Position numbers and translations under genes: made by a program. Below are positions 27,089 to 51,050 of a stretch of DNA of 64,000 nucleotides, one piece after another. Each line of letters opens with the position of its first letter. Position 1 is the first letter of the stretch. Origin of the DNA: Candidatus Methylomirabilota bacterium (lineage in GTDB: Bacteria; Methylomirabilota; Methylomirabilia; Rokubacteriales; CSP1-6); contig DASTCJ010000012.1 in NCBI GenBank assembly GCA_035605575.1, positions 1,075 to 65,074 on the forward strand, in the 5' to 3' direction. Under the pieces are notes generated by a model, which did no database searches, had not been told where the DNA came from, and was given only the letters and a program-made list of their open reading frames with translations.

Positions 27089-30000
27089 ATGCAACACGCC
27101 GAGTTCGTCCATCTGCACGTTCACTCCGAGTACAGCCTGCTCGACGGCGCCGCGCAGCTCGAGAAGCTCGTCAAGAAGGCGAAGGATCTGAAGTTCGCGG
27201 CCATCGCCCTCACCGACCATGGCAACCTCTTCGGCGGCATCGAATTCTATCTCGCCGCCCAGAAGGCCGGTATCAAGCCCATCCTCGGCTGCGAACTCTA
27301 CGTGGCGCCCGGCAAGCGGACGGATCGCGCATCACAGGATGGTGGCTACGAGGGCGCGAATCACCTGACGGTGCTGGTGCGCGATGCCACGGGCTACCGC
27401 AATCTGATCAAGCTCGTCTCCAAGGCGTATCTGGAAGGCTTTTACTACAAGCCGCGCGTGGATCGCGAGCTGCTCGCTCAGCATGCCGGTGGACTCCTCG
27501 TGCTGTCCGGCTGTCTGAACTCGGAGGTGTCGCGCGCCCTGACGACGGGCGACTTCGACAAGGCGCGACAGACGGCGGGCTGGTATCAGGAGGTCTTCGG
27601 CCGCGACCACTATTTCATGGAAGTCCAGGCCCACGGCATGGACGAGCAGGTCAAGGTCACCGCGGAGACGGTGAAGATCGCGAGGGCGATCGGGGCGCCC
27701 ATCTGCGGCACGAACGATTCGCACTATCTCGAGGCCGGTCACGCGCGGGCCCACGAGGCCCTGCTGTGCATCCAGACGGGATCGACGCTGGCGGATCCCA
27801 CCCGCTGGAAGTTCTCGACCCAGGAGTTCTACGTGAAATCGGCGGAGGAGATGGCGCAGGTCTTCGCCGATCTGCCGGAGGCGTGCCGCAATACGCTGGC
27901 CGTGGCCGAGCGGTGCAACCTCACGCTCGACTTCGGACGCTTCCACCTGCCGAAGTACGTGGTGCCCGAGACGCACACGCTCGAGACGTACCTCAGCGAG
28001 CTGGCGCGCGACGGGCTGAAGCGACGCTATGGTCCGAGCCCGGGTGACGCCATCGAGAACCGGCTCGCCCACGAGCTCTCGGTCATCGAGAAGATGGGCT
28101 TCGCCGGCTACTTTCTCGTCGTGTGGGACTTCATCCACTACGCGCGGCAGCACGGCATCGCCGTCGGCCCCGGCCGTGGCTCGTCCGCCGGGTCTCTGGT
28201 CGCGTACTGTCTCGGCATCACGAACGTGGATCCGATTCGCTACGGGCTGCTGTTCGAGCGATTCTTGAACCCCGAGCGCATCTCGATGCCGGACATGGAT
28301 ATCGACTTCGCCGACGATCGCCGCGACGAGGTCATCCGCTACGTCGCTGACAAGTACGGCCGGGATCGGGTGGCGCACATCATCACGTTCGGCACCCTCG
28401 GCGCCAAGGCCGCCATCCGTGACGTCGGCCGCGTGCTCGGGATGAGCTATGCCGACGTCGACCGCATCGCCAAGCTCGTCCCGAACTTCCCGCTGAACAT
28501 CACGCTGGACGACGCCTATCAGAAGTCGCCCCCGCTGGCCGAGATGGTGAAGGGCCAGGACGGCGTGGCCGAGCTGTGGGACATCGCGCGCGCGCTCGAA
28601 GGCTGCACGCGCCACGCGTCGGTGCACGCCTCGGCCGTCGTCATCGCCGACGACCCGCTCGACGACTACATCCCCCTCTACAAGGATCCGAAGCGGCCCG
28701 AGCTCATCACCGGCTACGCCATGGGCCCCATCGAGAAGCTCGGCCTGCTGAAGATGGACTTCCTCGGCCTGCGCACGCTGACGGTGCTCGCGAACACGGC
28801 AACGCTCATCAAGGAGTCGCGCGGGATCGACATCGACTTCGACGCGTTGCCCCTCGACGATCCGAAGGCGTACGCGCTGCTCACGGAGGCCAGAACCTTC
28901 GGCGTCTTCCAGCTGGAGTCCTCGGGCATGCGCGAGGCGCTGCGCGGCCTCAAGCCCGAGCGTCTCGAGGACGTCATCGCCATGGTGTCGCTCTACCGGC
29001 CCGGCCCCATGGAGCTCATTCCGGACTTCATCAACAGAAAGCACGGCCGGGCCAAGGTCACCTACGAGCATTCCGCGATGGAGAGGTTCACGCGGGAGAC
29101 GTACGGGATCATGGTCTATCAAGAGCAGATCATGCAGATCGCCTCCGAGATGGCCGGGTTCACCATGGGCGAGGCCGACACGCTCCGCCGCGCCATGGGC
29201 AAGAAGGACCGCGATCTGATGGCCAAGCAGCGCGAGAAGTTCCTCGCCGGGTGCGCCGAGCGTGGCACGGCGAACGCCAAGGCCGAGCGGGTCTGGGAGC
29301 TGATGGAGAAGTTCGCCGGGTACGGTTTCAACAAGTGCCTGGCCGCCGACGCGTGGATCGAGATGGTCGACGGCTCGCGCAAGCCCATCACGGCCATCCG
29401 CGACGGCGATCTCGTGCTGACGAAGGACGGGCCGCACAGGGCGTGCCGCGTGCGGCCGAGCGGCGTACGGCAGGTGGGCCGGCTGACGCTCGAAAACGGC
29501 TGTGCGCTGCGCTGCACGCCCGACCACCCGATCTTCACCGAGCGCGGCTGGATCAATGCCGAGGACCTCAAGCCGGGCGACGCGGTGGCCGTCCTCGACG
29601 TGGCGACGGCCGCCTTCCGGCGCGTGGAAGCACGCCGCCGCGGTGAGCCGGCGGAGGTCAGCCAGACACCGATGGCGTGGATGACGCCCGTCTCGTTCGT
29701 GCTCGAGGGCGAGGAGCCCACCTACGATTTCGAGGTGCCCGGCGCCCACAGCTTTATCGCCAATGGCGTGGCCGTCCACAACTCGCACGCAGCGGCGTAC
29801 GCGCTGGTCGCATACCAGACCGCCTACTTCAAGGCGAACTACCCCGTCGAGTTCATGGCCGCGCTGCTCACGTCCGAAATGGGCGACACCGACAAGATCG
29901 TGAAGTACATCGACGAGTGTCGGGCGATGGGGCTGACCGTGTCGCCCCCCGACGTCAACGTGTCGGCCGTGCAGTTCAGCGTCGCCGGTGACACGATCCG

Positions 30001-31009
30001 TTTCGGGCTGGCTGCCATCAAGAACGTCGGTGAGGCGGCGATGGAGTCCATCCTGAAGACGCGGGCTGAGGAGGAAGCGTTCAAGACGCTCGACGACTTC
30101 TGCGTCCGCGTCGATCTCCGCCTCGTCAACCGGCGCGTCATCGAGAGCTTGATCAAGGCGGGCGCGTTCGACTCGCTCGGTCTCACGCGCGCACACCTTC
30201 TGGCGCAGACCGACGCCGCGCTCGAGGCGGGCCAGCGCGTGCAGCGCGATCGTGCGGAGGGACAGGCGTCCTTCTTCGACGATCTCCTGCCGAAGGCCCC
30301 CGTGCAGACGCGCGCGGAGACGATGACCCCCGTGCTCGAGGAGTGGCCCGAAGATCAGCGGCTGGCGTACGAGAAGGAAGTCCTCGGCTTCTACGTCTCC
30401 GGCCATCCGCTCGCGCAGTATGCCGGCCTCGTGGAGTCGCTCGGCGTGACGACCGCCGCCGATCTCGCCACCAGGGGCCACGGCGCGAAGGTCACGCTCG
30501 TCGGGCACGTGGCCGCGCTAAAGGAAACCGCGACCAAGAGCGGCAACCGGATGGCGTTCCTGACGCTGGAGGACATGACCGGCACGGTCGAGGTCACCGT
30601 GTTTCCCGAGCCGTTCAAGGCGGCGGCGCCGTTCCTGCGCGGGCGCGAGCCGATCATCGTACGCGGCCGCGTGGACGACGGCGACAAGGGCCGCGTCGTC
30701 CTCGCCGAGGACGCGCGACTGCTCGAGGACTCGCTCGGGACCACCACCGCTCGCGCGAAGACGGGCGGCGAGCCGAGCGCGTGTCGGATCCGCGTGCGCG
30801 GCAACGGCGAGACGAGCTCTCAGCTGGCGGCGCTGCGAAAGGTTTGCGAGGAGCATCCAGGCGGCGTGCCGGTGTTCGTGCACGTCCTGCTGCCGGGGCT
30901 CGAGGTGGTCGTGCGCTCGCGCGGTATCTCCGTGGACGGCGGCGCCGCACTCAACGAGAAAGTGAACGCGCTCCTCGGTCCAGCCGCTTTCACCATCGAC
31001 TATGCCTGA
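27089..31009 (+). CDS. dnaE: DNA polymerase III subunit alpha, containing a 149-aa mini-intein
   Basis: PHP domain (HLHVHSEYSLLDG) and polymerase core; 1306 aa, about 150 aa longer than usual because the conserved FAGYGFNK|SHAAAYALVAY motif is split by an insertion. Confidence 0.95.
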   Translation: MQHAEFVHLHVHSEYSLLDGAAQLEKLVKKAKDLKFAAIALTDHGNLFGGIEFYLAAQKAGIKPILGCELYVAPGKRTDRASQDGGYEGANHLTVLVRDATGYRNLIKLVSKAYLEGFYYKPRVDRELLAQHAGGLLVLSGCLNSEVSRALTTGDFDKARQTAGWYQEVFGRDHYFMEVQAHGMDEQVKVTAETVKIARAIGAPICGTNDSHYLEAGHARAHEALLCIQTGSTLADPTRWKFSTQEFYVKSAEEMAQVFADLPEACRNTLAVAERCNLTLDFGRFHLPKYVVPETHTLETYLSELARDGLKRRYGPSPGDAIENRLAHELSVIEKMGFAGYFLVVWDFIHYARQHGIAVGPGRGSSAGSLVAYCLGITNVDPIRYGLLFERFLNPERISMPDMDIDFADDRRDEVIRYVADKYGRDRVAHIITFGTLGAKAAIRDVGRVLGMSYADVDRIAKLVPNFPLNITLDDAYQKSPPLAEMVKGQDGVAELWDIARALEGCTRHASVHASAVVIADDPLDDYIPLYKDPKRPELITGYAMGPIEKLGLLKMDFLGLRTLTVLANTATLIKESRGIDIDFDALPLDDPKAYALLTEARTFGVFQLESSGMREALRGLKPERLEDVIAMVSLYRPGPMELIPDFINRKHGRAKVTYEHSAMERFTRETYGIMVYQEQIMQIASEMAGFTMGEADTLRRAMGKKDRDLMAKQREKFLAGCAERGTANAKAERVWELMEKFAGYGFNKCLAADAWIEMVDGSRKPITAIRDGDLVLTKDGPHRACRVRPSGVRQVGRLTLENGCALRCTPDHPIFTERGWINAEDLKPGDAVAVLDVATAAFRRVEARRRGEPAEVSQTPMAWMTPVSFVLEGEEPTYDFEVPGAHSFIANGVAVHNSHAAAYALVAYQTAYFKANYPVEFMAALLTSEMGDTDKIVKYIDECRAMGLTVSPPDVNVSAVQFSVAGDTIRFGLAAIKNVGEAAMESILKTRAEEEAFKTLDDFCVRVDLRLVNRRVIESLIKAGAFDSLGLTRAHLLAQTDAALEAGQRVQRDRAEGQASFFDDLLPKAPVQTRAETMTPVLEEWPEDQRLAYEKEVLGFYVSGHPLAQYAGLVESLGVTTAADLATRGHGAKVTLVGHVAALKETATKSGNRMAFLTLEDMTGTVEVTVFPEPFKAAAPFLRGREPIIVRGRVDDGDKGRVVLAEDARLLEDSLGTTTARAKTGGEPSACRIRVRGNGETSSQLAALRKVCEEHPGGVPVFVHVLLPGLEVVVRSRGISVDGGAALNEKVNALLGPAAFTIDYA
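29336..29782 (+). other. mini-intein inserted in DnaE (Cys1 ... His-Asn, +1 Ser)
   Basis: in-frame 149-aa insertion beginning CLAADAWIEMVDG (block A), containing TPDHP (block B TxxH) and ending VAVHN directly before SHAAAY; too short for a homing endonuclease domain. Confidence 0.8.
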
Positions 31010-31970: not shown

Positions 31971-32960
31971 TCAGCGCCGGAGGAGCCCGAGCGCAGCGTC
32001 CTCGTCGGTGACGAGGACGTTCATGAAGCGACCCGCCAGCGCACCGCGCAGCGCTTCGACCTTGCTCTTGCCGCCCGCGACGGCGATGACCGTCCGATCG
32101 TCGCGCCGCGAGAGCGCCTGCAGCTGGTCGCCCGCGACCGACAGCAGGCGACGCGAGAGCGCGGCGAGCTCGGGTCGCTCGACGATGCGCCCTTCGGCGT
32201 CGAAGGGCTGATAGTTGATCTCGCCCACCACGCCGAGCTGCCGCAGCCGCTTCACGCTGACGCCGTAGGACTCGGCCAGCGAGCAGAAGCCGGGCGTCTG
32301 CTCGGCGATCATCCCGACGCCCACGATGGCGATGTCGACATCCTGCGCCGCCTCGTAGATGGAGCGGATCTCCGGATCCCGCAGAAGCCGTCGGCGCTCG
32401 CGCTCGATCTGGCCGAGCGAGAGCAGGTGCTGGACGGGAAGGGCGTAGGCGCGCACGTGCGGCCGGTATTTCGCGGCCATCATCCCGACCAGCGTGTTCG
32501 AGAAGATGTCGACGAGCTTCAGCGTGCTCTCACCGGAGAGCGGATAGAGCGTGAGGTCGCGCAGCCGCCGCTCGCGAAGCGAGCGAATCGTGTGATAGAG
32601 CGTGAGGCCGCACGACAGCCCGATCTTCATGCCGTTCTCCGCCACCTTCTCGAAGTATGCGGCGGCGGCGGCGCCGAGCTCGGCGCGGAGATCGCCACGG
32701 CCGCCCGAGGCAACGACGACCGCCTCCCGCAATTCGAACGTCTGCACGAGCGCCGTCTCGAGATCCTCGGTGCGCGGGAGATCCAGCTCGACGCGCACGA
32801 GCCCCTCGTCCATCGCGCGCTTGAGCAGGCGTGACACGGTGGCCGCCGACACGCCGAGCGCTGTGGCGATGTCCTTCTGGCTGCGGCCCTGCCGGTAGTA
32901 GAGCTCCAGGCACTGGACCATCTGCCGGACTTCACGCGAGGGTTGCGAAATTAATTTCAT
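31971..32960 (-). CDS. SorC/DeoR-family sugar-phosphate-binding transcriptional regulator (CggR-like)
   Basis: N-terminal HTH (IATALGVSAATVSRLLKRA) plus a C-terminal SorC sugar-binding domain; start taken at MKLISQ (32960), giving 330 aa. Confidence 0.75.
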   Translation of the reverse strand: MKLISQPSREVRQMVQCLELYYRQGRSQKDIATALGVSAATVSRLLKRAMDEGLVRVELDLPRTEDLETALVQTFELREAVVVASGGRGDLRAELGAAAAAYFEKVAENGMKIGLSCGLTLYHTIRSLRERRLRDLTLYPLSGESTLKLVDIFSNTLVGMMAAKYRPHVRAYALPVQHLLSLGQIERERRRLLRDPEIRSIYEAAQDVDIAIVGVGMIAEQTPGFCSLAESYGVSVKRLRQLGVVGEINYQPFDAEGRIVERPELAALSRRLLSVAGDQLQALSRRDDRTVIAVAGGKSKVEALRGALAGRFMNVLVTDEDAALGLLRR

Positions 32961-33049
32961 GGCTCTCAAGTTCTTGCTTGACCGCCCAAGTCTACGCCGA
33001 TATCCTCCGAGCGTCAGGAAATTCCCATCACCGTCAATGGAGGGCAGCA

Positions 33050-34570
33050 ATGGACGCACGCCGCTACGGCCCGTCCGATGGCCGACCCGTCCCCTTCGAG
33101 GCATATCACCAGTCCCGTAACGAGCTGGAGGGCCTGCCGCTGACGGTGGCGGACAAGATTCCCGTCACCAACACGCCGAACATCTTCTCGTACAAGGCGT
33201 ACGTGTTCGCGAAGGACCCCGCCCTCGTGCGCCGCTTCATCAAGGCCACCAAGGCGGACGTGGGGGGCGTCGGCGGTCACGTGGTCGCCGCCGACGAGGT
33301 GAAGTCGGTCATCGCGAAGTTCGTCCTCGACAACAACGCCTATCGCGGCGAGCCGATCTTCACCTCGCTCATGATCACGCACACCGGTGACGACTGCGCG
33401 GTGACCGGCATCATGGCCGAGTCGGTCGACATGTCGGTCGTCGACGAGCTCATGTGGGATGCGCTGCAGGAAGGCGCGGCCAAGGCCGCCGAGCTCGGTC
33501 TCTACGGGCCCGGCCAGGATCTCGTGGCCGATGCGTTCACCGGTAACCTGCGCGGCGCGGGCCCCGCAACCGTGGCGCTGCCATTCCCGGTGCGGAAGGA
33601 CAATCCATCGCAGACGGTCCTCGTGTCCTTCGCCGACAAGACGGAGCCGATGGCGTTCAATCACTTCGCGACCGGCGCCTACATGCTGCCACGCTTCAAC
33701 AGCGGGCTCATCATCGCGTCTTCGCGGATGAAGCGCGGCTACGTGTTCGAGATCGTCGATCTCGACACGAAGGCACAGGCCATCGAGGCCGGCGCCCACC
33801 CCCGCGATGCCCAAGCCCTCGACGGCAAGATGGAGGAGCTCGCCAAGGGGCTTCAGGAGAAGGTGATCACGCTGCGCGCGCCCGAGGATCTCTACGACAT
33901 CGAGGGTCTCACGCGTTCGTCGCGCTTCGTCGTCGCGCGCATCTGGACCCGCAACGACGCGGGCGAAAAGGACCAGCTCGGCTACATCTGCTCGGCCGAG
34001 CGCCTGCACAACATCAAGACGAAGAAAGGCTTCACCTACGGGGGCAAGGACGATCCTGTGCTTCTGGCCTTCGCCCAGGGCGACTGGCCGGCCCCGGGCG
34101 AGATCACCTCGCCGTGGGCGACGGCACCGATGGTGGCCGGCGACTGCCGTGGTAGCCACAACCTGCACATCCTGCCGATGCCCATCAACTCGCAGACCTC
34201 GTACTGGTCCGGCCCGATCATCTCGGCCATCACGCTCTCGTGCAACATCCACACGGGCCGCATCGGCGCGATCTCGGATCAGTTCGCGCTCGGCACGCCG
34301 TGGGACGAGGTGCGCCGTACCGCCTCACAGCTGGCCATCCAGTTCCGTCACGCGCACGGCGTCAAGCAGCCCGCGACGCTGCACGAAGACGAGCTCGAGT
34401 ACCAGGAAGGCTGGAAGGAACGCCGCGCCCGCCTCGAGCGCCAGTTCGAGGTGAAACCTGCGCTGACATTCACCCCAAACGGCACCAGCACCCACGGCAA
34501 CGGCCACCCGACCGCCACCGGCGCAAGCCGCACCGCCCTCACCACCGCTCGTCCGGAGGAGATCGACTAG
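33050..34570 (+). CDS. fbp: bifunctional fructose-1,6-bisphosphate aldolase/phosphatase (class V FBPase, archaeal type) with N- and C-terminal extensions
   Basis: internal blocks match the archaeal FBPA/P: KADVGG..GH, LGLYGPGQDLVADAFTGNLRGAGP, ADKTEP, GGKDDPV, GDCRGSHNLHILPMP; GGAGGG RBS 6 nt upstream of the ATG; 507 aa. Confidence 0.75.
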   Translation: MDARRYGPSDGRPVPFEAYHQSRNELEGLPLTVADKIPVTNTPNIFSYKAYVFAKDPALVRRFIKATKADVGGVGGHVVAADEVKSVIAKFVLDNNAYRGEPIFTSLMITHTGDDCAVTGIMAESVDMSVVDELMWDALQEGAAKAAELGLYGPGQDLVADAFTGNLRGAGPATVALPFPVRKDNPSQTVLVSFADKTEPMAFNHFATGAYMLPRFNSGLIIASSRMKRGYVFEIVDLDTKAQAIEAGAHPRDAQALDGKMEELAKGLQEKVITLRAPEDLYDIEGLTRSSRFVVARIWTRNDAGEKDQLGYICSAERLHNIKTKKGFTYGGKDDPVLLAFAQGDWPAPGEITSPWATAPMVAGDCRGSHNLHILPMPINSQTSYWSGPIISAITLSCNIHTGRIGAISDQFALGTPWDEVRRTASQLAIQFRHAHGVKQPATLHEDELEYQEGWKERRARLERQFEVKPALTFTPNGTSTHGNGHPTATGASRTALTTARPEEID

Positions 34571-34778
34571 CGCCGACGAAAAATCCCACGCGCGCCGTGA
34601 ACGCGCTGTTCGAGCGCCGGCTTTGCCGGCGCAATCGACCTCGAAGATCGAGTCCTCGCGCATGACCGGTGGGGGGCCGACGGGGGGAGCGGCGCTCGCT
34701 CCCCCCGTCCTTTAATTGACTTCGCCCGGGTCGGGTGCTACGGTCAACACAGCTAAATCCCTGATTTCTTGGATCAGC

Positions 34779-36119
34779 ATGGCGAAGCTACACGTCATTA
34801 CCTACGGCTGTCAGATGAATGAATATGACTCGGAGCGTGTCGCGGGTCTGCTCCGCGAGCATCGCTATGAGTTGACCGAGACAGCCGACGACGCTGACCT
34901 CATCCTCGTGAATACGTGCGCCATCCGCGAGAAAGCCGAAGACAAGGTGTTCTCGAAGCTCGGCGAGCTCCGGGCGCTGAAGACGCAGCGCCCCGAGCTG
35001 GTGCTGGGTGTGATGGGCTGCATGGCGCAGCTGCAGCAGGGGGTGGTGCAGAAGCGCGCGCCGTACGTCGATCTCGTGTTCGGCTCACCGGCGGTCGCAC
35101 GGGTGGCCGAGCTCGTCGAGCGCGCGCGGCGAGAGCGGCGGCCGATCATGGATACCGCGGAGGCGCCGCTGGTGAAGATCACCGCGCGGCCGCCGTCGGC
35201 GAGCCGCCTGAAGGCATACGTCACGGTGATGGAGGGCTGCGAGAAGCACTGCACCTTCTGTGTCGTGCCGCGCACGCGCGGTCGCGAACGCAGCCATCCG
35301 CCGGAGAGCATCGTGGCCGAGGTCGAAGGTCTCGTCGCCGAGGGTTGCCGTGAGGTCACGCTGCTCGGGCAGACGGTCAACGCGTACGGCCGCGATCTGA
35401 CGCCACCCACCGATCTCGCCGAGCTCTTCCAGCGCGTGAACGACGTCGATGGGCTCCAGCGCATCCGCTTCACGACCTCGAATCCCTACAACCTCACGCC
35501 GAAGCTCATCGCCGCCATGCGCGATGTCCCGAAAGTGTGCGAGTGGTTCCATCTGCCACTGCAGTCGGGCTCCGATCGCATACTGGAACGCATGAACCGC
35601 GGCTACACGCGCGCTCAGTACCTCGATCTCATCGCCGCCCTCCGCGATGCCGTGCCCGACCTCGCGCTGTCCACCGACATCATCGTCGGCTTTCCCGGCG
35701 AGACGGAGTCGGACTTCGAAGCGACGCTCGAGATGATCGAGCGTGTGCAGTACGACAACGTCTTCGCATTCCGCTACTCACGGCGGCCCGGCACGCCGGC
35801 GGCCACGATGGACGAGCAGGTGGCGGACGAGGTGAAGGCCAGTCGCAACGCGCGGCTGCTCGCCCTCGCTACGCGCGTGGCCGCGACGCGGAGCGCGCGG
35901 CTGTCCGGGCACGAGGTCGAGGTGCTCGTCGACGGCGCCTCGAAGCGGAATCCGAGAGAGCTGTCCGGCCGGACGCGGTGCAACCGGGTGGTGAACTTCG
36001 ACGGCAAGGGGACGGCGATCGGCGACGTGGTCACTGTTCGAGTGACCGACGTGATGCCGCACAGTCTGCGCGCCACGCTGACGACAGTGCCCGAGGAGGC
36101 CGTATGCTCGTCGAGATGA
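34779..36119 (+). CDS. miaB: tRNA-2-methylthio-N6-dimethylallyladenosine synthase
   Basis: UPF0004 N-terminal Cys triad (GCQMN...NTCAIRE), radical-SAM CEKHCTFCVVP motif and TRAM domain. Confidence 0.93.
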   Translation: MAKLHVITYGCQMNEYDSERVAGLLREHRYELTETADDADLILVNTCAIREKAEDKVFSKLGELRALKTQRPELVLGVMGCMAQLQQGVVQKRAPYVDLVFGSPAVARVAELVERARRERRPIMDTAEAPLVKITARPPSASRLKAYVTVMEGCEKHCTFCVVPRTRGRERSHPPESIVAEVEGLVAEGCREVTLLGQTVNAYGRDLTPPTDLAELFQRVNDVDGLQRIRFTTSNPYNLTPKLIAAMRDVPKVCEWFHLPLQSGSDRILERMNRGYTRAQYLDLIAALRDAVPDLALSTDIIVGFPGETESDFEATLEMIERVQYDNVFAFRYSRRPGTPAATMDEQVADEVKASRNARLLALATRVAATRSARLSGHEVEVLVDGASKRNPRELSGRTRCNRVVNFDGKGTAIGDVVTVRVTDVMPHSLRATLTTVPEEAVCSSR

Positions 36120-36607
36120 AGGTGCGTGGGCTGGCCCTGGATCCGGTCTCGAACATGCCGATCATCATCCTGCGCGACGAAGAGGACAAGCGCTCGCTGC
36201 CCATCTGGGTCGGCATCTTCGAGGCCAATGCCATCGCGCTCGAGCTGGAGAAGATCGCCACCCCGCGCCCGATGACCCACGACCTGATCAAGAGCATCCT
36301 CGAGACGCTCGAGGCGCAGGTCGTGAAGATCGTCGTCACCGACCTGAAGGAGAATACCTTCTTCGCCGTCCTCCATCTGAAGCTCGGCGATGCCGAATAC
36401 ACGGTGGATTCGCGTCCGTCCGACGCCATCGCGCTCGCGCTGCGCGTGGCGGCGCCGATCTACGTGGAAGAAGAGGTGTTCCCCAAGGCCGGCAAGATGG
36501 AGGTGGCCAAGGAAGCCGAGCCGGTCAAGCCGGACGATCCGGAGCAGCTGCGCGAGTGGCTGCAGAACATCAAGCCGGAGGATTTCGAGAAGTACAACAA
36601 GGCCTGA
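36104..36607 (+). CDS. bifunctional nuclease (BFN/DUF151) family protein
   Basis: 168 aa; conserved PIIILRDEEDKRSLPIWVGIFEANAIA core; overlaps the miaB 3' end by 16 nt. Confidence 0.7.
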   Translation: MLVEMKVRGLALDPVSNMPIIILRDEEDKRSLPIWVGIFEANAIALELEKIATPRPMTHDLIKSILETLEAQVVKIVVTDLKENTFFAVLHLKLGDAEYTVDSRPSDAIALALRVAAPIYVEEEVFPKAGKMEVAKEAEPVKPDDPEQLREWLQNIKPEDFEKYNKA

Positions 36608-36613
36608 CGGCCC

Positions 36614-37768
36614 GTGCGCATCGCGCTCTTTACCAACAACTATCTCCCGTTCTGCGGCGGCGTGACCATCTCGGTCGAGACGCTGCGCCGTGGCCTCGAA
36701 GCCCGCGGCCACGAGGTCTGGGTCATGGCCCCGCGGTTCCGCGGCGTCGCCGGCAGCGCGCCGGGGGTCATCCGCTACCCGTCGATCCCGGCCACGACCT
36801 ATCCGGAGTTCCCGCTCGCGATTCCGTACGCGCCGGCGGTGACCGCGCGCGTGCGCGCCCTCGCCGTGGACGTCTTCCACGCGCACCATCCGTTCCTGCT
36901 CGGCCCGGCCGCCGAACGACTCGCGCGGCGCGCCGGCCGTCCGCTCGTGTTCACATACCACACACGCTACGAGAAGTACGCGCACTACGTGCCCCTCACG
37001 CGTCCGCTCGTCGAGGCCGCCGCGGTGCGGCTCAGCACGCGGTTCGCCGCCCGCGTGGACGCGGTGATCGCGCCATCCGTGGTCGTTCGCGACGAGCTGG
37101 AGCGGCGCGGCGTGCAGTCACCGGTGGCGGTGGTGCCGACCGGCGTCGATCTCGGGCGCTTCCGGCCTGGCGATCGGCGGACCGCACGCCGCGCGCTCGG
37201 GCTGCCCGAGCACGCCCCCGTGCTTCTCTACGTCGGCCGTCTCGACCGCGAGAAATCGGTCGACCGTGTCCTGCTGGCCTTCGAGCGCATCGCGTCCACG
37301 GTTCCGCGGGCGCGGTTGCTGCTGGTTGGCCACGGCAAGGAGGCCGAGCGGCTGCGCCGGCGGGCGGCCACGCTGAGCGCGGCCGCTGGCGTGCAGTTCC
37401 TCGGCGTGCGCGCGCACGACACGCTGCCCGTGTGCTACCAGGCCGCCGATCTCTTCCTCTTCGCCTCGGAGACGGAGACACAAGGCCTGGTGCTCGCGGA
37501 GGCGGCCGCGTGCGGCCTGCCGGCGGTGGCCGTGGACGCGTCAGGATGTGACGAGGTCGTGCGCGACGGCGATACGGGGCTCCTGACGAAGAACGATCCG
37601 ACCGCGCTCGCCGAGGCGGCCATCGGCCTGCTCCTCGACGGCGAGCGCCGCTCGGCCATGGCGCGGCGCGCCCGTGATGTGGCCGTGAGCGCGTTCGATG
37701 TGCGCCTGCAGATCGATCGCACGCTGGACGTCTACGCCGAGGCGATGTCGCGGACGGGGCGACGGTGA
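36614..37768 (+). CDS. glycosyltransferase family 4 protein
   Basis: GT-B fold; the C-terminal half has the EX7E-like motif (ETETQGLVLAEAAACGLP); 384 aa. Confidence 0.85.
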   Translation: MRIALFTNNYLPFCGGVTISVETLRRGLEARGHEVWVMAPRFRGVAGSAPGVIRYPSIPATTYPEFPLAIPYAPAVTARVRALAVDVFHAHHPFLLGPAAERLARRAGRPLVFTYHTRYEKYAHYVPLTRPLVEAAAVRLSTRFAARVDAVIAPSVVVRDELERRGVQSPVAVVPTGVDLGRFRPGDRRTARRALGLPEHAPVLLYVGRLDREKSVDRVLLAFERIASTVPRARLLLVGHGKEAERLRRRAATLSAAAGVQFLGVRAHDTLPVCYQAADLFLFASETETQGLVLAEAAACGLPAVAVDASGCDEVVRDGDTGLLTKNDPTALAEAAIGLLLDGERRSAMARRARDVAVSAFDVRLQIDRTLDVYAEAMSRTGRR

Positions 37769-38016
37769 GCGACGGACGCGCCATTCGCGTGCAGTGCCGT
37801 CGTGAATTCGCGCTCCCCGAGGGCCAGGGCCTGCTGGCGGCGGATGCCCGCGCGCGTACGCTGCGGAAGGTCATCGTGAGCTACCCGGAAGTGCGCCACA
37901 TCCGCCCCGATCGGATCAGCCTCGATGCGACCGCGGACGCGCGCACGATCGAGACGGTCGTGCGTTTCCTCGAGCGCCAGCATTGGCTGGTCGCGGCGGT
38001 GGCGGTGGAGGAATGA
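37765..38016 (+). CDS. hypothetical 83-aa protein with a carrier-protein-like DRISLDATAD...FLE segment
   Basis: ATGA overlap with the glycosyltransferase stop; sequence resembles the ACP/PCP phosphopantetheine-attachment region (..DSLD..E.V..LE), but the Ser is unusually C-terminal. Confidence 0.4.
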   Translation: MSDGRAIRVQCRREFALPEGQGLLAADARARTLRKVIVSYPEVRHIRPDRISLDATADARTIETVVRFLERQHWLVAAVAVEE

Positions 38017-38318
38017 GCCAGCGCACGGCCGAAGCGCACGCGCGCATCAAGGAGGAGATCGCGCGCGAGAAGGCGGCCGCCCTCGGCCGTGCCGGCGAGC
38101 GCCTGGAAGCCGCCCTCGTCACCGTCGCCGGCATCGCGACGGCCTGGCGCGCCGCCACCGAGCCCGCGGAGTGCGAGCGCCTCGCCCGCGAGTATGACGC
38201 CGCCTGGCGTACCGCTGACGCCGCGCGCCTGGCGCTGCTGATCCAGCGCGAGGCCGTCGGGTTGCGCGATCAGCGCGTGGTGGATCAGCAGTTTCCGCGC
38301 CCGCCGCGGCGCCCGTGA
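38013..38318 (+). CDS. hypothetical 101-aa helical protein
   Basis: ATGA overlap with the preceding ORF and 4-nt overlap with the following ligase gene; Ala/Arg/Glu-rich and predicted helical. Confidence 0.4.
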   Translation: MSQRTAEAHARIKEEIAREKAAALGRAGERLEAALVTVAGIATAWRAATEPAECERLAREYDAAWRTADAARLALLIQREAVGLRDQRVVDQQFPRPPRRP

Positions 38319-39610
38319 TGTTCGACGCGCACGCGGAGACCCTCGAGCGCGGTGCGCGCGAGGCGCTCCAGCTCGAGCGGCTGCGCGCCACGGTGGCGTG
38401 GGCGGTGGAGCGGGTCGAGTTCCATCGTGCGCGACTCGGCAGCTCGCACGTGCAGTCGCTCGACGACCTCGCCCGTCTGCCGTTCATGCGGAAGAGCGAT
38501 CTGCGCGAGCACTATCCTTTCGGCCTCTTCGCGGTGCCGCGCGGCGAGCTCGCGCGCCTCCACGCCTCGTCCGGGACGAAAGGCAAGCCCACGGTGGTGG
38601 GCTACACCGCGAGCGATCTCGGGACGTGGCGCGATGTGATGGCGCGCGCGATGACGGCGGCGGGGTGCCGGCGCGGCGACACGCTCCACGTGGCCTTCGG
38701 CTACGGCCTGTTCACCGGCGGCCTCGGTTTTCACGACGGCGCCGAGCGTCTCGGCATGACGGTGCTGCCGGTGTCGTCCGGCAACACTGCACGGCAGCTC
38801 CTGCTGCTGCAGGATCTCAGGCCGGCCGGCCTGTGCGCGACCCCGTCGTTCGCGCTGCACATCGCCGAGACGCTCGAGGCGCAGGGCGGCGATCCGCGCA
38901 CCCTGGGCCTCCGCTACGCGATGTACGGCGCCGAGCCGTGGACGGACGGCATGCGCGCAGCGCTCGAGCGCGCGTTCGCGTGTCCCGCCTACGACATCTA
39001 TGGGCTGTCCGAGATCATCGGACCCGGCGTGGCCGGGGAGTGCGAGGCGCGTGACGGCCTGCACGTCGCCGACGATCATTTCTTCCCGGAGATCATCGAT
39101 CCGACCACCGGCGCCGTGCTCGGTCCGGGCCGCGAGGGCGAGCTCGTGCTGACGGCGCTCACCAAGCGCGCCGTCCCGATGATTCGCTATCGCACCGGCG
39201 ACATCACCACGCTCGACGAGCGCCCGTGCGCCTGCGGCCGCACCACGGCGCGCATCGCCCGCGTGAAGGGGCGCGCGGACGACATGCTGATCGTCAAGGG
39301 CGTGAATCTGTATCCGTCGGAAGTCGAGGCCACGCTGCTCGGCGTGGAGGAGCTCGTGCCGCACTACCAGCTCATCGTCGATCGATCGAGCACGCTGGCG
39401 CGGCTCGAGGTGCAGGTGGAACCATCGGCGGCGGTCGTCGCGCGCTGTGACGGCTTCGATCCCGCCCATCCGATCCTGGTCGAGCTCCAGCGCCGGGTGG
39501 CCGCGCGGCTGGCGAGCGCGATCGGGCTCACCGTGGCGTTGACGCTGGTGGCCCCACGCACCGTTCCGCGCTCGGAGGGCAAGGCCGTGCGTGTGGTCGA
39601 GAAAGGCTGA
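38315..39610 (+). CDS. phenylacetate-CoA ligase (PaaK)/coenzyme F390 synthetase-like adenylate-forming enzyme
   Basis: 431 aa; PaaK-family N-terminal region (FHRARLGSSHVQSLDDLARLPFMRKSDLREHYPF), AMP-binding SSGTKGKPT motif and a C-terminal lid domain. Confidence 0.85.
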   Translation: MMFDAHAETLERGAREALQLERLRATVAWAVERVEFHRARLGSSHVQSLDDLARLPFMRKSDLREHYPFGLFAVPRGELARLHASSGTKGKPTVVGYTASDLGTWRDVMARAMTAAGCRRGDTLHVAFGYGLFTGGLGFHDGAERLGMTVLPVSSGNTARQLLLLQDLRPAGLCATPSFALHIAETLEAQGGDPRTLGLRYAMYGAEPWTDGMRAALERAFACPAYDIYGLSEIIGPGVAGECEARDGLHVADDHFFPEIIDPTTGAVLGPGREGELVLTALTKRAVPMIRYRTGDITTLDERPCACGRTTARIARVKGRADDMLIVKGVNLYPSEVEATLLGVEELVPHYQLIVDRSSTLARLEVQVEPSAAVVARCDGFDPAHPILVELQRRVAARLASAIGLTVALTLVAPRTVPRSEGKAVRVVEKG

Positions 39611-39647
39611 GCGGTCAGGGTATGCTGGAACCGAGGAGGCGCCTGCC

Positions 39648-40466
39648 ATGAGCGAGCAGCGGGAGATGATGAGCAAGATCGAGCGCGGCGTCCGGCTCGA
39701 GTCCGCGGATGAGATGACGCCGGAGTACCGGGACAGCCTCGTCCATCTCATGACGATGCAGGCCGACTCCGAGCTCGCCGGCGGCTACGGGTACGTGCCG
39801 TGGATCGCCAAGGCGCCGACGGTCGAGGAAAAACACGTCGTCGCGCAGATCGTGAAGGACGAGCTGCGGCACGCGGCGGTGATGTACGGGCTCCTTGCCG
39901 ATCTGGGCTTCGACGTGGACAGTCACGTGCGCCGGCACGATGAGACGTTCACGATGCGGATCGACGCCAGCGCCGACATCGGCACCCAGCGGATCACCGC
40001 CGACAAGCGCGTCAATATTTTCTACTACCCGATCGACACCTGGCAGGACTTCATCTTCTTCAACTTCTGCATGGACCGCGGCGCCGGCCATCAGCTCGAG
40101 GACGTCCGGCACTGCTCCTATGGCCCCTGGGTTCGCGCCATCGAAGGGATCTTCAAGGAGGAGAAGTTCCACATCCGCCACGGCGAGTACTGGGTGAAGA
40201 AGCTCGCCGAGGATCCTGCCACCAAGGCGGAAGCGCAAGCGACGTTCAACAAGTGGTACATCCGGACGATGAACATCTTCGGCCGCCCGGGGTCGCCGAA
40301 AAATCAGCTGTATCGGCGGCTGAAGCTCAAGCTGCGTGACAACGACGAAGTACGCGCCGCCTTCGCCACCGAAGTGGCCGGCCTGTGCGAGAAGTTCGGC
40401 CTCCAGGTGCCGGCCTGGAAGCCCGTCTGGGAGAACCTGCCGGAAGAGGCCCAGATCCCGGGCTGA
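39648..40466 (+). CDS. PaaA/PaaC-like ferritin-fold di-iron oxygenase, stand-alone
   Basis: blocks align to PaaA (YRDSLVHLMTMQADSELAGG; KDELRHAA ExxH; EDVRHCSYGPWVRAI ExxH; IFKEEKFHIRHG); 273 aa; no paaB, paaC, paaD or paaE nearby. Confidence 0.75.
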   Translation: MSEQREMMSKIERGVRLESADEMTPEYRDSLVHLMTMQADSELAGGYGYVPWIAKAPTVEEKHVVAQIVKDELRHAAVMYGLLADLGFDVDSHVRRHDETFTMRIDASADIGTQRITADKRVNIFYYPIDTWQDFIFFNFCMDRGAGHQLEDVRHCSYGPWVRAIEGIFKEEKFHIRHGEYWVKKLAEDPATKAEAQATFNKWYIRTMNIFGRPGSPKNQLYRRLKLKLRDNDEVRAAFATEVAGLCEKFGLQVPAWKPVWENLPEEAQIPG

Positions 40467-40611
40467 CGGGGACGCCCGGCCCCCGGGCCGGGTGGAGGTT
40501 CGGGTACGTCAGCGACGAATCCGAGGACAAGCGCCGCAATTGTCTCAGCCTGAAGTTGACATAATACGGCTTATCGGCACCAGGACGCCGAGCGAGTCAG
40601 CAGCGTGGCAG

Positions 40612-43284: not shown

Positions 43285-43602
43285 TCAGCCGCCGATGTCC
43301 ACGAAGAGGTTGCCATCCTCCTCGGCGATCGGATAGCAGGCGACCTTGACCGCGGGGTTGTTGACGTTGGCACCGGTCGTCACGTCCCAGCGCCACGCAT
43401 GCCACGGACAGAGGACGATCGCGCCCTCGAGATCGCCTTCGCCGAGCGGGCCGCCGCGGTGGCTACACTCGTTGTCGATCGCGTAGAATGCCCCATCCAC
43501 ATTGAAAACCGCCAGCGTTCGCCCGGCCGCCTCGAAGACGCGTCCGCTACCGAGCGGAACGTCGGCCGCTCGCGCCACCCGCACGCGCTGTCCCGCACTC
43601 AT
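43285..43602 (-). CDS. Rieske (2Fe-2S) domain protein (NirD-like small subunit / Rieske ferredoxin)
   Basis: CSHRGGPL...CPWHAWRWD Rieske ligand boxes; 106 aa. Confidence 0.85.
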   Translation of the reverse strand: MSAGQRVRVARAADVPLGSGRVFEAAGRTLAVFNVDGAFYAIDNECSHRGGPLGEGDLEGAIVLCPWHAWRWDVTTGANVNNPAVKVACYPIAEEDGNLFVDIGG

Positions 43603-43714
43603 CGTCACCCCCGCCCCTGTCCTAGCGGCCGCGCCGGCGGCTGTCAAGACGGCCGGCGGCCCGGTTCTTGATGCAAAGTACCCACGGACGACGCCACACG
43701 ACAAGGAGCTTGCG

Positions 43715-44092
43715 ATGCCACAAGGGTCCACGACGTTTCACGAGTCGGAAGAGCGGCTGTCACCGCGCACGCGCGACATGCACCGGGCGATCGTCAGCCT
43801 GATGGAGGAGCTCGAGGCCATCGACTGGTATCAGCAGCGCATGGACGCCACCGAGGATGGGGAGCTCCGTGAGATCCTGCGTCACAACCGGGACGAGGAG
43901 AAGGAGCATGCGGCGATGGTGCTCGAATGGATCCGCCGTCGCGACGACGGGTTCTCCGGCGTCCTGAAGACGTACCTCTTCAGCGAAGGCTCGATCACCG
44001 AGCTCGAGGACGTGGTCGAGAAGGGCAACGGCAACGGCGCACGCCTGGGCACGCGCGCGTCGGTCGGCTCCCTGCGTGGAGGCGGGCGATGA
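43715..44092 (+). CDS. encapsulated ferritin-like protein (EncFtn) with a C-terminal encapsulin targeting peptide
   Basis: EncFtn core (RDMHRAIVSLMEELEAIDWYQQR...HNRDEEKEHAAMVLEW); C-terminal Gly-rich linker then SVGSLRGGGR, matching the Family-1 cargo-loading peptide; AAGGAG RBS. Confidence 0.8.
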   Translation: MPQGSTTFHESEERLSPRTRDMHRAIVSLMEELEAIDWYQQRMDATEDGELREILRHNRDEEKEHAAMVLEWIRRRDDGFSGVLKTYLFSEGSITELEDVVEKGNGNGARLGTRASVGSLRGGGR

Positions 44093-44901
44093 GCGACTAT
44101 CTGCGGCGTCACACCGCTCCGGTTTCCGACCGCGTCTGGAAGGCCCTCGACGAGGCGGTGGCCCAGGCCGCCCGTCACGTGCTCGCCGCGCGGCGCATCG
44201 CCACGTTCGACGGACCCCACGGCTGGGATCACGTCGCCGCACGCACCGGCTCGATGACCCCGTGCGGAGCGCCCGAAGGCCGCGCGGTCGTCTGCGTGCC
44301 CGAGGTGGTCCTGCTCTGCGAGATCCGCGTCGACTTCGCGCTGCCATGGTCCTCGATCGAAGTCTTCGAGCGCGGCGCGCCGGTGCTCGACACCGGCCCC
44401 GCCGAGGCCGCCGCGCGGGAAGCGGCGCTCGCCGAAGATCGGCTGGCCTTTTACGGTGACCCGGTCGGCGGCGGATTCTTGACCGGCAAGGAGAGTCCCC
44501 GCGTCAAGGCGCAGACCTGGTCGCGCGGCGCCGAGATGCTCGGCGACCTCCTGCGCGCCGTGGAGACGCTCGACGAGCGCGGAGTTCCCGGTCCCTACGA
44601 AGCCGTGCTGCCCACGGCCCGGTATTACGCCTATCTGCAAGCCGTCGATGACAGCGGTTACCCGACGGCGCGGCAGCTCCGCGACGTGTTCGCCAACGTT
44701 CATCGCTCGCCCGTGATCTCCGGGGCCGGGGCCGTGTTCTCGACCCGCGGGGGCGATTTCGTGCTCACCGTCGGCGGGGATCTGGCGGTCGGCTATCGGC
44801 TCCACGACCGGGATCTGGTCCACCTTTTTTGCGCCGAGACTATCGCCGCCCAGACAGTGGCCCCGGAGGCGGTGTGCGTGCTGGAGGCTATCGTCACGTA
44901 A
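44089..44901 (+). CDS. Family 1 encapsulin nanocompartment shell protein (HK97 fold, linocin M18-like)
   Basis: 270 aa; N-terminal region aligns to the T. maritima encapsulin (LRRHTAPVSDRVWKALDEAV...FDGPHGWDH); ATGA overlap with the EncFtn stop. Confidence 0.85.
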   Translation: MSDYLRRHTAPVSDRVWKALDEAVAQAARHVLAARRIATFDGPHGWDHVAARTGSMTPCGAPEGRAVVCVPEVVLLCEIRVDFALPWSSIEVFERGAPVLDTGPAEAAAREAALAEDRLAFYGDPVGGGFLTGKESPRVKAQTWSRGAEMLGDLLRAVETLDERGVPGPYEAVLPTARYYAYLQAVDDSGYPTARQLRDVFANVHRSPVISGAGAVFSTRGGDFVLTVGGDLAVGYRLHDRDLVHLFCAETIAAQTVAPEAVCVLEAIVT

Positions 44902-49916: not shown

Positions 49917-51050
49917 TTGCGTAGGGCCGATTCAAGGACCATGCCGAGAGCCCGCCGCCGCGTCCGTGCACCGCGGATCGTCACCGAGCCCGTCGAGGCG
50001 GCAAAACTCGCTGGATTGACGTATGTCTCGGACCGCCGGCCCGGCATCACGCGCAAGCGCGCGGGCAAATCTTTCACGTACGTGCACCCCGAGGGAAGAT
50101 CCGTGCGCGATGCGGAATCATTCCTCCGCATCCGCTCGCTCGCGATTCCACCCGCGTGGACCGACGTCTGGATCTGTACGAGTCCCAACGGCCACCTGCA
50201 GGCGGTCGGCCGCGACGCGCGCGGTCGCAAGCAGTACCGCTATCATCCGCGCTGGCGCGCGATCCGCGACGAGACCAAATACGCGCGCATGCTCGCCTTC
50301 GCGCGCGCGCTGCCGAAGATCCGCGCACGCGTCACCGAAGATCTCGCACGTCCGGGTCTGCCGCGCGCCAAGCTGCTGGCCACCGTCGTGCGGTTGCTCG
50401 AGACGACGCTGATTCGCATCGGCAACGAGGAGTACGCGCGCGAGAACGGCTCGTTCGGCTTGACGACCATGCGCCGCCGTCACGTCGCCGTCTCCGGCTC
50501 GCTGCTGCGATTCCATTTTCGCGGCAAGAGCGGCAAGGAGCACGCGGTCGACATTCGCGACCCCCGGCTGGCACGAGTCGTCCGGCGCTGTCAGGAGCTC
50601 CCCGGCCAGGAGCTCTTCCAGTTCGTCGACGACGACGGCGCCCGGCAGAGCATCGACTCCGCCGACGTGAACGACTATCTGCGCGGCATCGCCGGCGACG
50701 AGTTCACCGCGAAGGATTTCCGCACGTGGGCCGGGACCGTGCTGGCCGCGCTGGCGCTTGCCGAGCTGGCGGCCTTTTCGTCGAAGCGTCAAGCGCGCCG
50801 CAACATCGTGCGCGCCGTAGAGTCGGTGGCGCGCCGGCTCGGCAACACGCCGGCCATCTGTCGCAAGGGTTATGTGCACCCGGCCATCATCGAGGCATAT
50901 CTCGACGGCGTCATGCTCGACGCCTTTCGCCGCCGCACCGCGCGCGCGATCACGGAGGACATCAGCGGTCTCACGACCGACGAAGCCGTCGTGCTCGGCA
51001 TGCTACAACAGCGACTGGCTCACGCGGGCGTGACCGCGCGCGCCGCGTGA
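49917..51050 (+). CDS. DNA topoisomerase IB (poxvirus-type, bacterial TopIB)
   Basis: about 370 aa; N-terminal DNA-binding region (IPPAWTDVWI) and catalytic C-terminal region with the active-site Tyr context (CRKGYVHPAIIE). Confidence 0.75.
   Translation: MRRADSRTMPRARRRVRAPRIVTEPVEAAKLAGLTYVSDRRPGITRKRAGKSFTYVHPEGRSVRDAESFLRIRSLAIPPAWTDVWICTSPNGHLQAVGRDARGRKQYRYHPRWRAIRDETKYARMLAFARALPKIRARVTEDLARPGLPRAKLLATVVRLLETTLIRIGNEEYARENGSFGLTTMRRRHVAVSGSLLRFHFRGKSGKEHAVDIRDPRLARVVRRCQELPGQELFQFVDDDGARQSIDSADVNDYLRGIAGDEFTAKDFRTWAGTVLAALALAELAAFSSKRQARRNIVRAVESVARRLGNTPAICRKGYVHPAIIEAYLDGVMLDAFRRRTARAITEDISGLTTDEAVVLGMLQQRLAHAGVTARAA

Follow-up and report, generated by a model that had tools for sequence, protein, structure and literature searches.

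Which reaction can be expected from an oxygenase of the PaaA family that is encoded without its partner subunits, next to a PaaK-like ligase and in an operon headed by the tRNA modification gene miaB? The question is raised by a 64,000-nucleotide stretch of a Candidatus Methylomirabilota genome (assembly GCA_035605575.1, contig DASTCJ010000012.1, positions 1,075 to 65,074), which we call the window and which has a G+C content of ~68%. Between positions 34779 and 40466 it carries seven uninterrupted genes on the + strand, coding for MiaB, a BFN/DUF151 protein, a family-4 glycosyltransferase (GT4), two small proteins (orf83 and orf101), a PaaK-like ligase and a PaaA-like protein. What is new here is a lone PaaA-like oxygenase without the lysine bridge, which is conserved across an uncultured phylum and shares a housekeeping operon with PaaK. 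The reading that we favor, to which we give roughly even chances, is a stripped-down upper phenylacetate pathway, in which PaaK would make an arylacetyl-coenzyme A (CoA) and the lone oxygenase would oxidise this thioester. Both key proteins belong to known families and most likely perform known chemistry, and the block is not a new kind of system. The two genes concerned are:

38315 to 39610, + strand: PaaK-like arylacetate-CoA ligase, 431 residues (TIGR02155, 516.6 bits)
39648 to 40466, + strand: lone non-canonical PaaA-like ferritin-fold di-iron oxygenase, 272 residues (PF05138; ribosome-binding site GAGGAGG upstream)

The PaaA-like protein retains the di-iron site

The PaaA-like protein matched PF05138 with 132.5 bits (cut-off 28.5). 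With the PaaA model TIGR02156 it reached 115.7 bits, which is under the equivalog cut-off of 280, and it shares 27% identity with PaaA from E. coli. The di-iron ligands of the E. coli enzyme are E42, E72, H75, D126, E155 and H158 (PMC4498308). On alignment all six are kept in the PaaA-like protein, as E42, E72, H75, D143, E172 and H175, and both ExxH motifs are intact (E72-x-x-H75 and E172-x-x-H175), which bears out the intact di-iron site claimed in the original prediction. Residue F125 aligns with Phe108 of E. coli PaaA, which orients the phenylacetyl group in that enzyme (PMC4498308).

Other elements of the canonical protein are not kept. The lysine bridge (Lys68-Glu49/Glu72/Asp126) is missing, with Ile68 and Tyr49 found instead, and at 272 residues the protein lacks ~40 C-terminal residues of E. 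coli PaaA (309 residues). In a set of 102 full-length sequences that represent the wider family, canonical PaaA shows an E-E-K signature (Glu49, Lys68), whereas most non-canonical members have other residues, for example Y/F at position 49 and I/L/M at position 68. Because the residues at positions 49 and 68 differ from the canonical signature, we assign the protein, on its alignment, to a large, uncharacterised non-canonical branch of the PaaA/PaaC family PF05138.

A tblastn search of the whole window with 14 Paa proteins from E. coli returned only the PaaA-like and PaaK-like genes plus a weak match to PaaZ, which is due to a MaoC domain at ~59 kb. Apart from this match the claim that paaB, C, D, E, G, Z and J do not accompany the two genes is correct. 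Genes for PaaB, PaaC, PaaD or PaaE were detected neither in the window nor within 10 kb in the 80 related loci described below, and the same two sets of sequence contained no second PF05138 (PaaC-like) gene or crotonase gene near the operon.

The PaaK-like ligase

The PaaK-like protein has the architecture AMP-binding plus AMP-binding_C_2 and shares 45% identity with PaaK from E. coli. Its TIGR02155 score of 516.6 bits falls short of the equivalog cut-off of 646.3; the closest solved structure is PaaK1 from B. cenocepacia (2Y27, E 4e-124). Phenylacetate-CoA ligases conserve an SSGT.GK P-loop and the motifs T-x-GLG, YRTGD and R.DDM (PMC13186573). All four can be read in the translation, as SSGTKGKPT, TGGLG, YRTGD and RADDM, and the substrate of the ligase is probably phenylacetate.

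A possible upper phenylacetate pathway

In the favored reading the genes from miaB through the PaaA-like gene would form one transcription unit, and the last two would act as a functional pair. Judged by homology, the PaaK-like adenylating enzyme would convert an arylacetate, most likely phenylacetate, to its CoA thioester. The lone di-iron PaaA-like protein would then oxidise this thioester with O2 and two electrons from a separately encoded donor, and by analogy with PaaA and the benzoyl-CoA epoxidase BoxB the oxidation would most likely be a ring epoxidation or hydroxylation. The oxygenase would have to work without PaaB, PaaC, PaaD and PaaE encoded nearby and without the Lys68-Glu49 bridge. 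Later steps (a PaaG-type isomerase, ring cleavage and beta-oxidation) are not encoded within 10 kb and would be located elsewhere in the genome or be absent. miaB, the DUF151 gene, the GT4 gene and the two small genes would be co-transcribed with the pair, and no tie of their products to the pathway of PaaK is implied.

A small soluble Rieske [2Fe-2S] ferredoxin-like protein is encoded 3 kb downstream of the oxygenase gene (43285-43731, - strand) and also near the operon in one related locus (L023). It is a conceivable candidate for the electron donor of the oxygenase.

Relatives of the oxygenase outside the phylum

A search of 1.8 billion representative sequences yielded 854 relatives of the PaaA-like protein, only ~40 of them below an E value of 1e-30, and the gene context was read for 13. 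A gene of the crotonase family lies directly upstream in five of the 13 contexts (P0129, P0131, P0141, P0143 and P0189). For three of these crotonases NCBIfam ranks PaaG first to third, and for a second crotonase further upstream the PaaF model comes first or second. Of the other contexts, leaving aside the related lineage L095 described below, two contain tandem PF05138 pairs and one follows sugar-nucleotide-modifying genes, whereas in the remainder the gene is isolated or the contig too short to tell. The crotonase contexts support a CoA thioester as the likely substrate of these oxygenases.

Scanning metagenomes with P0131 revealed 32 marine or aquatic loci of low-GC bacteria (L096-L127) with a near-invariant cluster. 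Its order is 4HPPD, (EthD), PaaF-like, PaaG-like, PaaA-like, PaaH-like and 3-oxoadipyl-CoA thiolase (plus aldehyde dehydrogenase), for example at ~7030-17750 of L098, and no PaaB, C, D, E, K or Z gene lies within 9 kb in the 32 loci. The full-length marine oxygenases are of the same length class as the protein of the window (~270 residues), with which they share 47-49% identity, the iron ligands and the Y49/I68 signature; their identity to E. coli PaaA is 28%. The marine clusters differ in that the oxygenase gene is flanked by PaaF/G/H/J-like genes and not by PaaK, whereas the Rokubacteria gene has PaaK and none of the others. This cluster resembles a Paa-type aromatic pathway that has not been described so far, with an oxygenase of one subunit. 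No other finding supports as strongly that the lone PaaA-like proteins of the non-canonical branch may use aryl- or acyl-CoA thioesters as part of a Paa-type route.

Further arrangements were seen among more distant relatives. Two high-GC loci (L083, 3-3049, and L092, 3528-7738) contain a (PaaF-like)-PaaG-like crotonase, a lone PaaA-like protein, a protein of 202-210 residues without a family and a lipid kinase with a DAGK_cat domain. Tandem PF05138 pairs (A/C-like), 38-43% identical to the protein of the window, occur in L084-L086 and on the contig of P0126; their flanking genes code for GNAT acetyltransferases, or genes for GT9 and GT2 glycosyltransferases come after them.

Conservation within the phylum

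A scan of one genome per species identified 281 relatives of the PaaA-like protein, and the best 80 loci were compared with the proteins of the window; neighbourhood counts refer to the 64 loci with at least 3.6 kb of upstream sequence. All close homologues (80-96% identity) belong to Candidatus Rokubacteria / Methylomirabilota, and over the 80 species the protein is 78-96% identical. A PaaK gene is located directly upstream in 55 of the 64 loci, consistently at ~1.3 kb. The GT4 gene was found upstream in 62 loci and the BFN gene, the most persistent neighbour, in 63, while orf83 and orf101 are present in 39 and 38 loci, either alone or both. The original prediction had proposed the combination of PaaK-like, PaaA-like and GT4 genes as a unit that should stay together in related genomes, and inside the phylum it does. 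As a portable module it did not hold up: the triad was found only in Methylomirabilota.

The arrangement is not due to chance because it recurs in dozens of species. Gene-order conservation inside the phylum alone is nevertheless weak evidence for a shared pathway, since the upstream genes accA, sorC and FBPase (fructose-1,6-bisphosphate aldolase/phosphatase), which are unrelated, are equally syntenic. The median identity of the PaaA-like protein is 83%, with 131 of 272 columns invariant in 81 sequences, compared with 84% for FBPase, 75% for MiaB and 70% for PaaK, a comparison that is biased by the choice of the loci according to similarity to the PaaA-like protein itself.

A PaaI-like hotdog thioesterase is encoded two genes downstream of the oxygenase in 11 Rokubacteria loci, which fits the theme of CoA thioesters. 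In the clade that has orf83 and lacks orf101, L075 (10822-12873) carries a secretin-domain protein, a PaaI-like 4HBT thioesterase and a BtrH_N-like protein after the oxygenase; these three genes do not occur in the window. Six contigs (L037, L047, L066, L068, L072 and L080) labelled as Binatia, Acidoferrum, Deferrimicrobiaceae, Dormiibacterota, Verrucomicrobiia or Limnocylindria also carry the operon, at 78-83% identity. Most likely these are Rokubacteria contigs that were mis-binned into other metagenome-assembled genomes.

Several observations weigh against a PaaK-PaaA pathway. We infer both the substrate and the reaction from homology, and both proteins score under their NCBIfam equivalog cut-offs. 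In eight of the 64 species miaB, the BFN gene and the GT4 gene are kept and PaaK is gone from the locus, and residues of the oxygenase that track this loss were sought in the alignment and not found. In one locus (L055) the oxygenase gene stands alone in an unrelated context without PaaK. In a metagenome-assembled genome of Methylomirabilia (L061, 9342-10819) the BFN gene overlaps the PaaA-like gene by 4 nucleotides and PaaK is likewise missing, and in a lineage with 71% identity (L095) the order is FBPase, BFN, GT4, orf101-like and PaaA-like, without miaB or PaaK. Apart from this related lineage, the 13 contexts read outside the phylum show no PaaK, GT4 or BFN gene next to the oxygenase gene. 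Genes for a reductase, a ferredoxin, a PaaG-like or a PaaZ-like protein were not detected within 10 kb in any of the 80 loci. Finally, conservation at the level of FBPase and a housekeeping operon without a regulator are odd for a catabolic enzyme.

A remnant of the MiaB N-terminus of 23 residues precedes the BFN gene in L061, where the operon seems to have lost miaB, GT4 and PaaK by deletion; in L053 a gene for a receiver-domain protein replaces the small genes and PaaK. Because the deeper arrangements in L061 and L095 are without PaaK, BFN-GT4-(orf101)-PaaA-like is the older, lineage-specific string, and PaaK (with orf83) is the variable part. Most simply, PaaK was gained next to the oxygenase; the alternative is that it was lost several times.

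The same data can be explained if the PaaA-like protein serves independently in housekeeping and acts on a substrate not supplied by PaaK, which would be a later passenger. The substrate could be another acyl-CoA, or the role could be tied to the DUF151 protein, the GT4 or orf101. Such a role, which we consider unlikely but worth serious weight, would agree with the nearly constant presence of the BFN and GT4 genes, the two deeper arrangements, the loss of PaaK in eight species with an unchanged oxygenase, the higher conservation of the oxygenase than of PaaK and the lack of an adjoining PaaK in all 13 out-of-phylum contexts. It is countered by the fact that PaaK and PaaA act consecutively in the known pathway, so that their adjacency in 86% of the species is unlikely to be accidental, and by the relatives in Paa-type clusters. 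Moreover, the absence of PaaK was read at the locus, and paralogues may exist elsewhere in those genomes; the string of BFN and GT4 genes may reflect slow rearrangement only, as the upstream housekeeping genes are equally syntenic.

Organization of the block and the remaining genes

Upstream of the two enzyme genes the block contains the following features:

34679 to 34709, + strand: strong terminator-like GC-rich hairpin in the interval from the FBPase gene to miaB (stem of 14 bp, then a T-rich tail)
34779 to 36119, + strand: miaB, tRNA ms2i6A37 methylthiotransferase, first gene of the block (TIGR01574, 520.6 bits, cut-off 355)
36104 to 36607, + strand: stand-alone BFN/DUF151 protein, 167 residues (PF02577, E 5e-42, 142.7 bits)
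36614 to 37768, + strand: GT4 retaining-type glycosyltransferase, 384 residues (PF00534 and PF13439)
37765 to 38016, + strand: orf83, small protein without a family match
38013 to 38318, + strand: orf101, small basic protein with a sub-threshold DUF6665 match

The junctions read in the sequence confirmed the seven coupled + strand genes described in the original prediction, and the Pfam and NCBIfam matches showed that its gene identities were correct. miaB and the BFN gene overlap by 16 nucleotides, with GAGGAGG ahead of the ATG at 36104, and a spacer of 6 nucleotides separates the BFN and GT4 genes. GT4 and orf83 are joined by a GTGA overlap at 37765, orf83 and orf101 by an ATGA overlap at 38013, and orf101 and the PaaK-like gene by GTGATG at 38315. 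The gap before 39648 exists as described, but its length is 37 nucleotides instead of 38; it contains the GAGGAGG of the PaaA-like gene.

The hairpin at 34679-34709 is probably the 5' boundary of the transcription unit, and no terminator-like site was found on the + strand inside the block. At the 3' edge the block meets a convergent gene for a response regulator. A 9-bp GC hairpin behind the PaaA-like gene (40473-40494) was rejected as a terminator, as it did not stand out from shuffled sequence (z -0.83) and lacks a T-run. An Rfam search of all 64 kb matched no RNA element.

The MiaB protein comprises the domains UPF0004, Radical_SAM and TRAM, and its gene is syntenic in most Rokubacteria loci. 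MiaE, which can act on the product of MiaB, is a ferritin-like di-iron hydroxylase, and the PaaA-like protein could in principle be its analogue and hydroxylate ms2i6A37. We regard this as highly improbable. The common type of di-iron hydroxylase, the position of miaB at the head of the operon, a weak match to PF13794 (MiaE_2) and a relative with 61% identity (P0121) located 1 kb from a MiaB-family gene speak for it. The PF13794 match reached 17.5 bits (cut-off 25.2), covers residues 26-95 only and is unspecific, since PaaC-like proteins match this model too; for this reason the MiaE-like function was rejected as the main explanation. The MiaE family PF06175 was not matched, the protein is acidic (isoelectric point 5.9), and miaB does not adjoin in L095 and is a mere remnant in L061. 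Near P0121 the gene of the MiaB family runs convergently, within an rsmE-ybeY string, and other relatives pair with CoA-ester enzymes.

An extension of this idea would make the whole operon a tRNA hypermodification unit, in which MiaB would act together with MiaE-like di-iron hydroxylation, decoration of the base by the GT4 and/or the PaaK-like protein, and the DUF151 protein as an RNA-binding partner. The first position of miaB, the conservation of the oxygenase like that of a housekeeping protein and the occurrence of nucleic-acid-modifying members in both enzyme superfamilies would be in line with it. The Paa-type contexts of the oxygenase relatives contradict it, and of all explanations given here we hold it the least credible.

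The nearest solved structure to the BFN protein is TM0160 from T. maritima (1VJL, E 4e-32). The only characterised stand-alone bacterial DUF151 protein that we found in the literature is Cor from M. tuberculosis, a BFN homologue that confers resistance to CO and showed no DNase or RNase activity (PMC3870250). With Cor as precedent, the earlier label of a DUF151 nuclease is doubtful for stand-alone bacterial proteins.

The GT4 consists of a Glyco_transf_4 N-terminal and a Glycos_transf_1 C-terminal domain (125 and 137 bits). None of the NCBIfam equivalogs reached its cut-off; the top model was alpha-monoglucosyl-diacylglycerol synthase with 166 bits (cut-off 400), and the nearest structures BshA, PimA and MshA (75-87 bits) indicate a likeness at the family level only. 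According to the original prediction, the GT4, the small proteins, PaaK and the PaaA-like protein might jointly produce a glycan, glycolipid or small-molecule glycoside that bears acyl or aryl groups. The translational coupling from the GT4 through the PaaA-like gene and the persistence of the GT4 beside the oxygenase even in L095 are compatible with this proposal, as are the lipid or small-molecule acceptors used by PimA, BshA and MshA and the glycosyl genes near two distant PF05138 relatives (GT9 and GT2 after P0126; GFO, DegT and acetyltransferase genes before P0147). The block contains no sugar-nucleotide genes and none for a flippase, a carrier protein or an acyltransferase, and PaaK is dispensable. 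The oxygenase persists without GT4 in L061, L067 and L055, the triad was not found outside one phylum, and the closest informative relatives of the oxygenase lie in catabolic clusters with PaaF, PaaG, PaaH and thiolase genes, which point to oxidation of an aryl-CoA ring. We consider a decoration of glycans or glycosides improbable.

Both small open reading frames are real genes because the differences among 35-37 species are concentrated at third codon positions (0.50 and 0.48), about twofold over positions 1 and 2 (0.22-0.28); the flanking enzyme genes show the same excess. The 173 homologues of orf83 are all unnamed and confined to Rokubacteria. Its AlphaFold2 model shows a ferredoxin-like beta-alpha-beta-beta-alpha-beta fold with a predicted local distance difference test (pLDDT) value of 89, and Foldseek found nothing in the PDB at E <= 0.001. 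The matches were generic ferredoxin-like proteins only (VapD, RAM modules and DABB; best E 0.06, template modelling score ~0.5), and orf83 was not assigned to any of them.

The model of orf101 is a long helical hairpin (pLDDT 92). Of its 1,148 homologues some carry PF20370 (DUF6665); orf101 itself scores 13.6 bits (E 0.084) against a gathering cut-off of 27, and homologues at 66-67% identity reach 25-27.5 bits. When their alignments were compared by hhalign with PaaB from E. coli and with an EthD protein, orf83 and orf101 reached probabilities of at most 0.2%, and both were rejected as hidden PaaB or EthD-like subunits.

Other features of the window

A SorC/CggR-type sugar-binding regulator gene (- strand) is divergent from the class V fructose-1,6-bisphosphate aldolase/phosphatase gene (PF01950) at 31971-34570, and throughout the phylum these two genes are syntenic with the operon. 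Further upstream the gene for DnaE, the alpha subunit of DNA polymerase III (27089-31009, + strand), contains an intein (Intein_splicing/Hint, residues ~750-911) between the finger and HhH domains. Downstream of the block an EncFtn gene (PF22277, E 6e-40) followed by the gene of a family-1 encapsulin shell (Linocin_M18, E 2e-59) at 43715-44901 (+ strand) forms, as judged from these matches, a predicted iron-storage nanocompartment locus. A bacterial type IB topoisomerase with Topoisom_I and Top1B_N_bact domains is encoded at 49917-51050 (+ strand); enzymes of this type are uncommon in bacteria.

Comparison with known systems

The nearest described system is PaaABC(D)E with PaaK of E. coli and Pseudomonas. 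It shares with the locus of the window a PaaK-family ligase beside a PF05138 ferritin-fold protein, the six iron ligands and the equivalent of Phe108, and presumably also the logic of CoA activation followed by an O2-dependent attack on the thioester. The oxygenase of the window differs from PaaA by its low identity, its score below the TIGR02156 cut-off, its shorter length and the lack of the lysine bridge, and the locus differs by the absence of PaaB, PaaC, PaaD and PaaE, of a PaaX or PaaR regulator and of lower-pathway genes, and by its place in a housekeeping operon. Without PaaC, PaaB and PaaE, canonical PaaA is neither soluble nor active (PMC4498308). A 2026 survey that covered 6,536 complete genomes used the PaaA and PaaC pair as marker of the phenylacetate pathway (PMC13186573), and a layout like that of the window is absent from it, in agreement with the original prediction that this is not a described phenylacetate configuration.

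A precedent for an oxygenase without partners is BoxB, a di-iron aryl-CoA epoxidase that has no structural partner subunit and whose reductase is encoded separately (PMC4498308). This benzoyl-CoA 2,3-epoxidase may serve, by analogy, as a working model for the lone PaaA-like enzyme. It differs by its length of ~470 residues and its remote similarity (TIGR03225, 32 bits; PDB 3PER, E 2e-4), and no BoxA-like or BoxC-like genes are present at the locus of the window. The oxygenase also matches PDB 4MUD, a structural-genomics entry named ring oxidation complex related protein, with an E value of 1.5e-17. In the literature we found no characterised protein among the marine lone PaaA-like group or for 4MUD, and a search for PaaA-like proteins or phenylacetate in Rokubacteria returned nothing relevant.

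A whole branch of the PaaA family stands alone, with members of ~270 residues that carry Tyr49 and Ile68 in place of the lysine bridge and retain the iron ligands, and with PaaK as partner in Rokubacteria and PaaF/G/H/J-like partners in marine bacteria. If its members are indeed self-sufficient aryl-CoA oxygenases, surveys based on marker genes would miss a part of phenylacetate-type catabolism, the view of the minimal architecture for this class of monooxygenases would have to change, and a testable function in the metabolism of aromatic acids could be assigned to a soil phylum that is abundant and uncultured.

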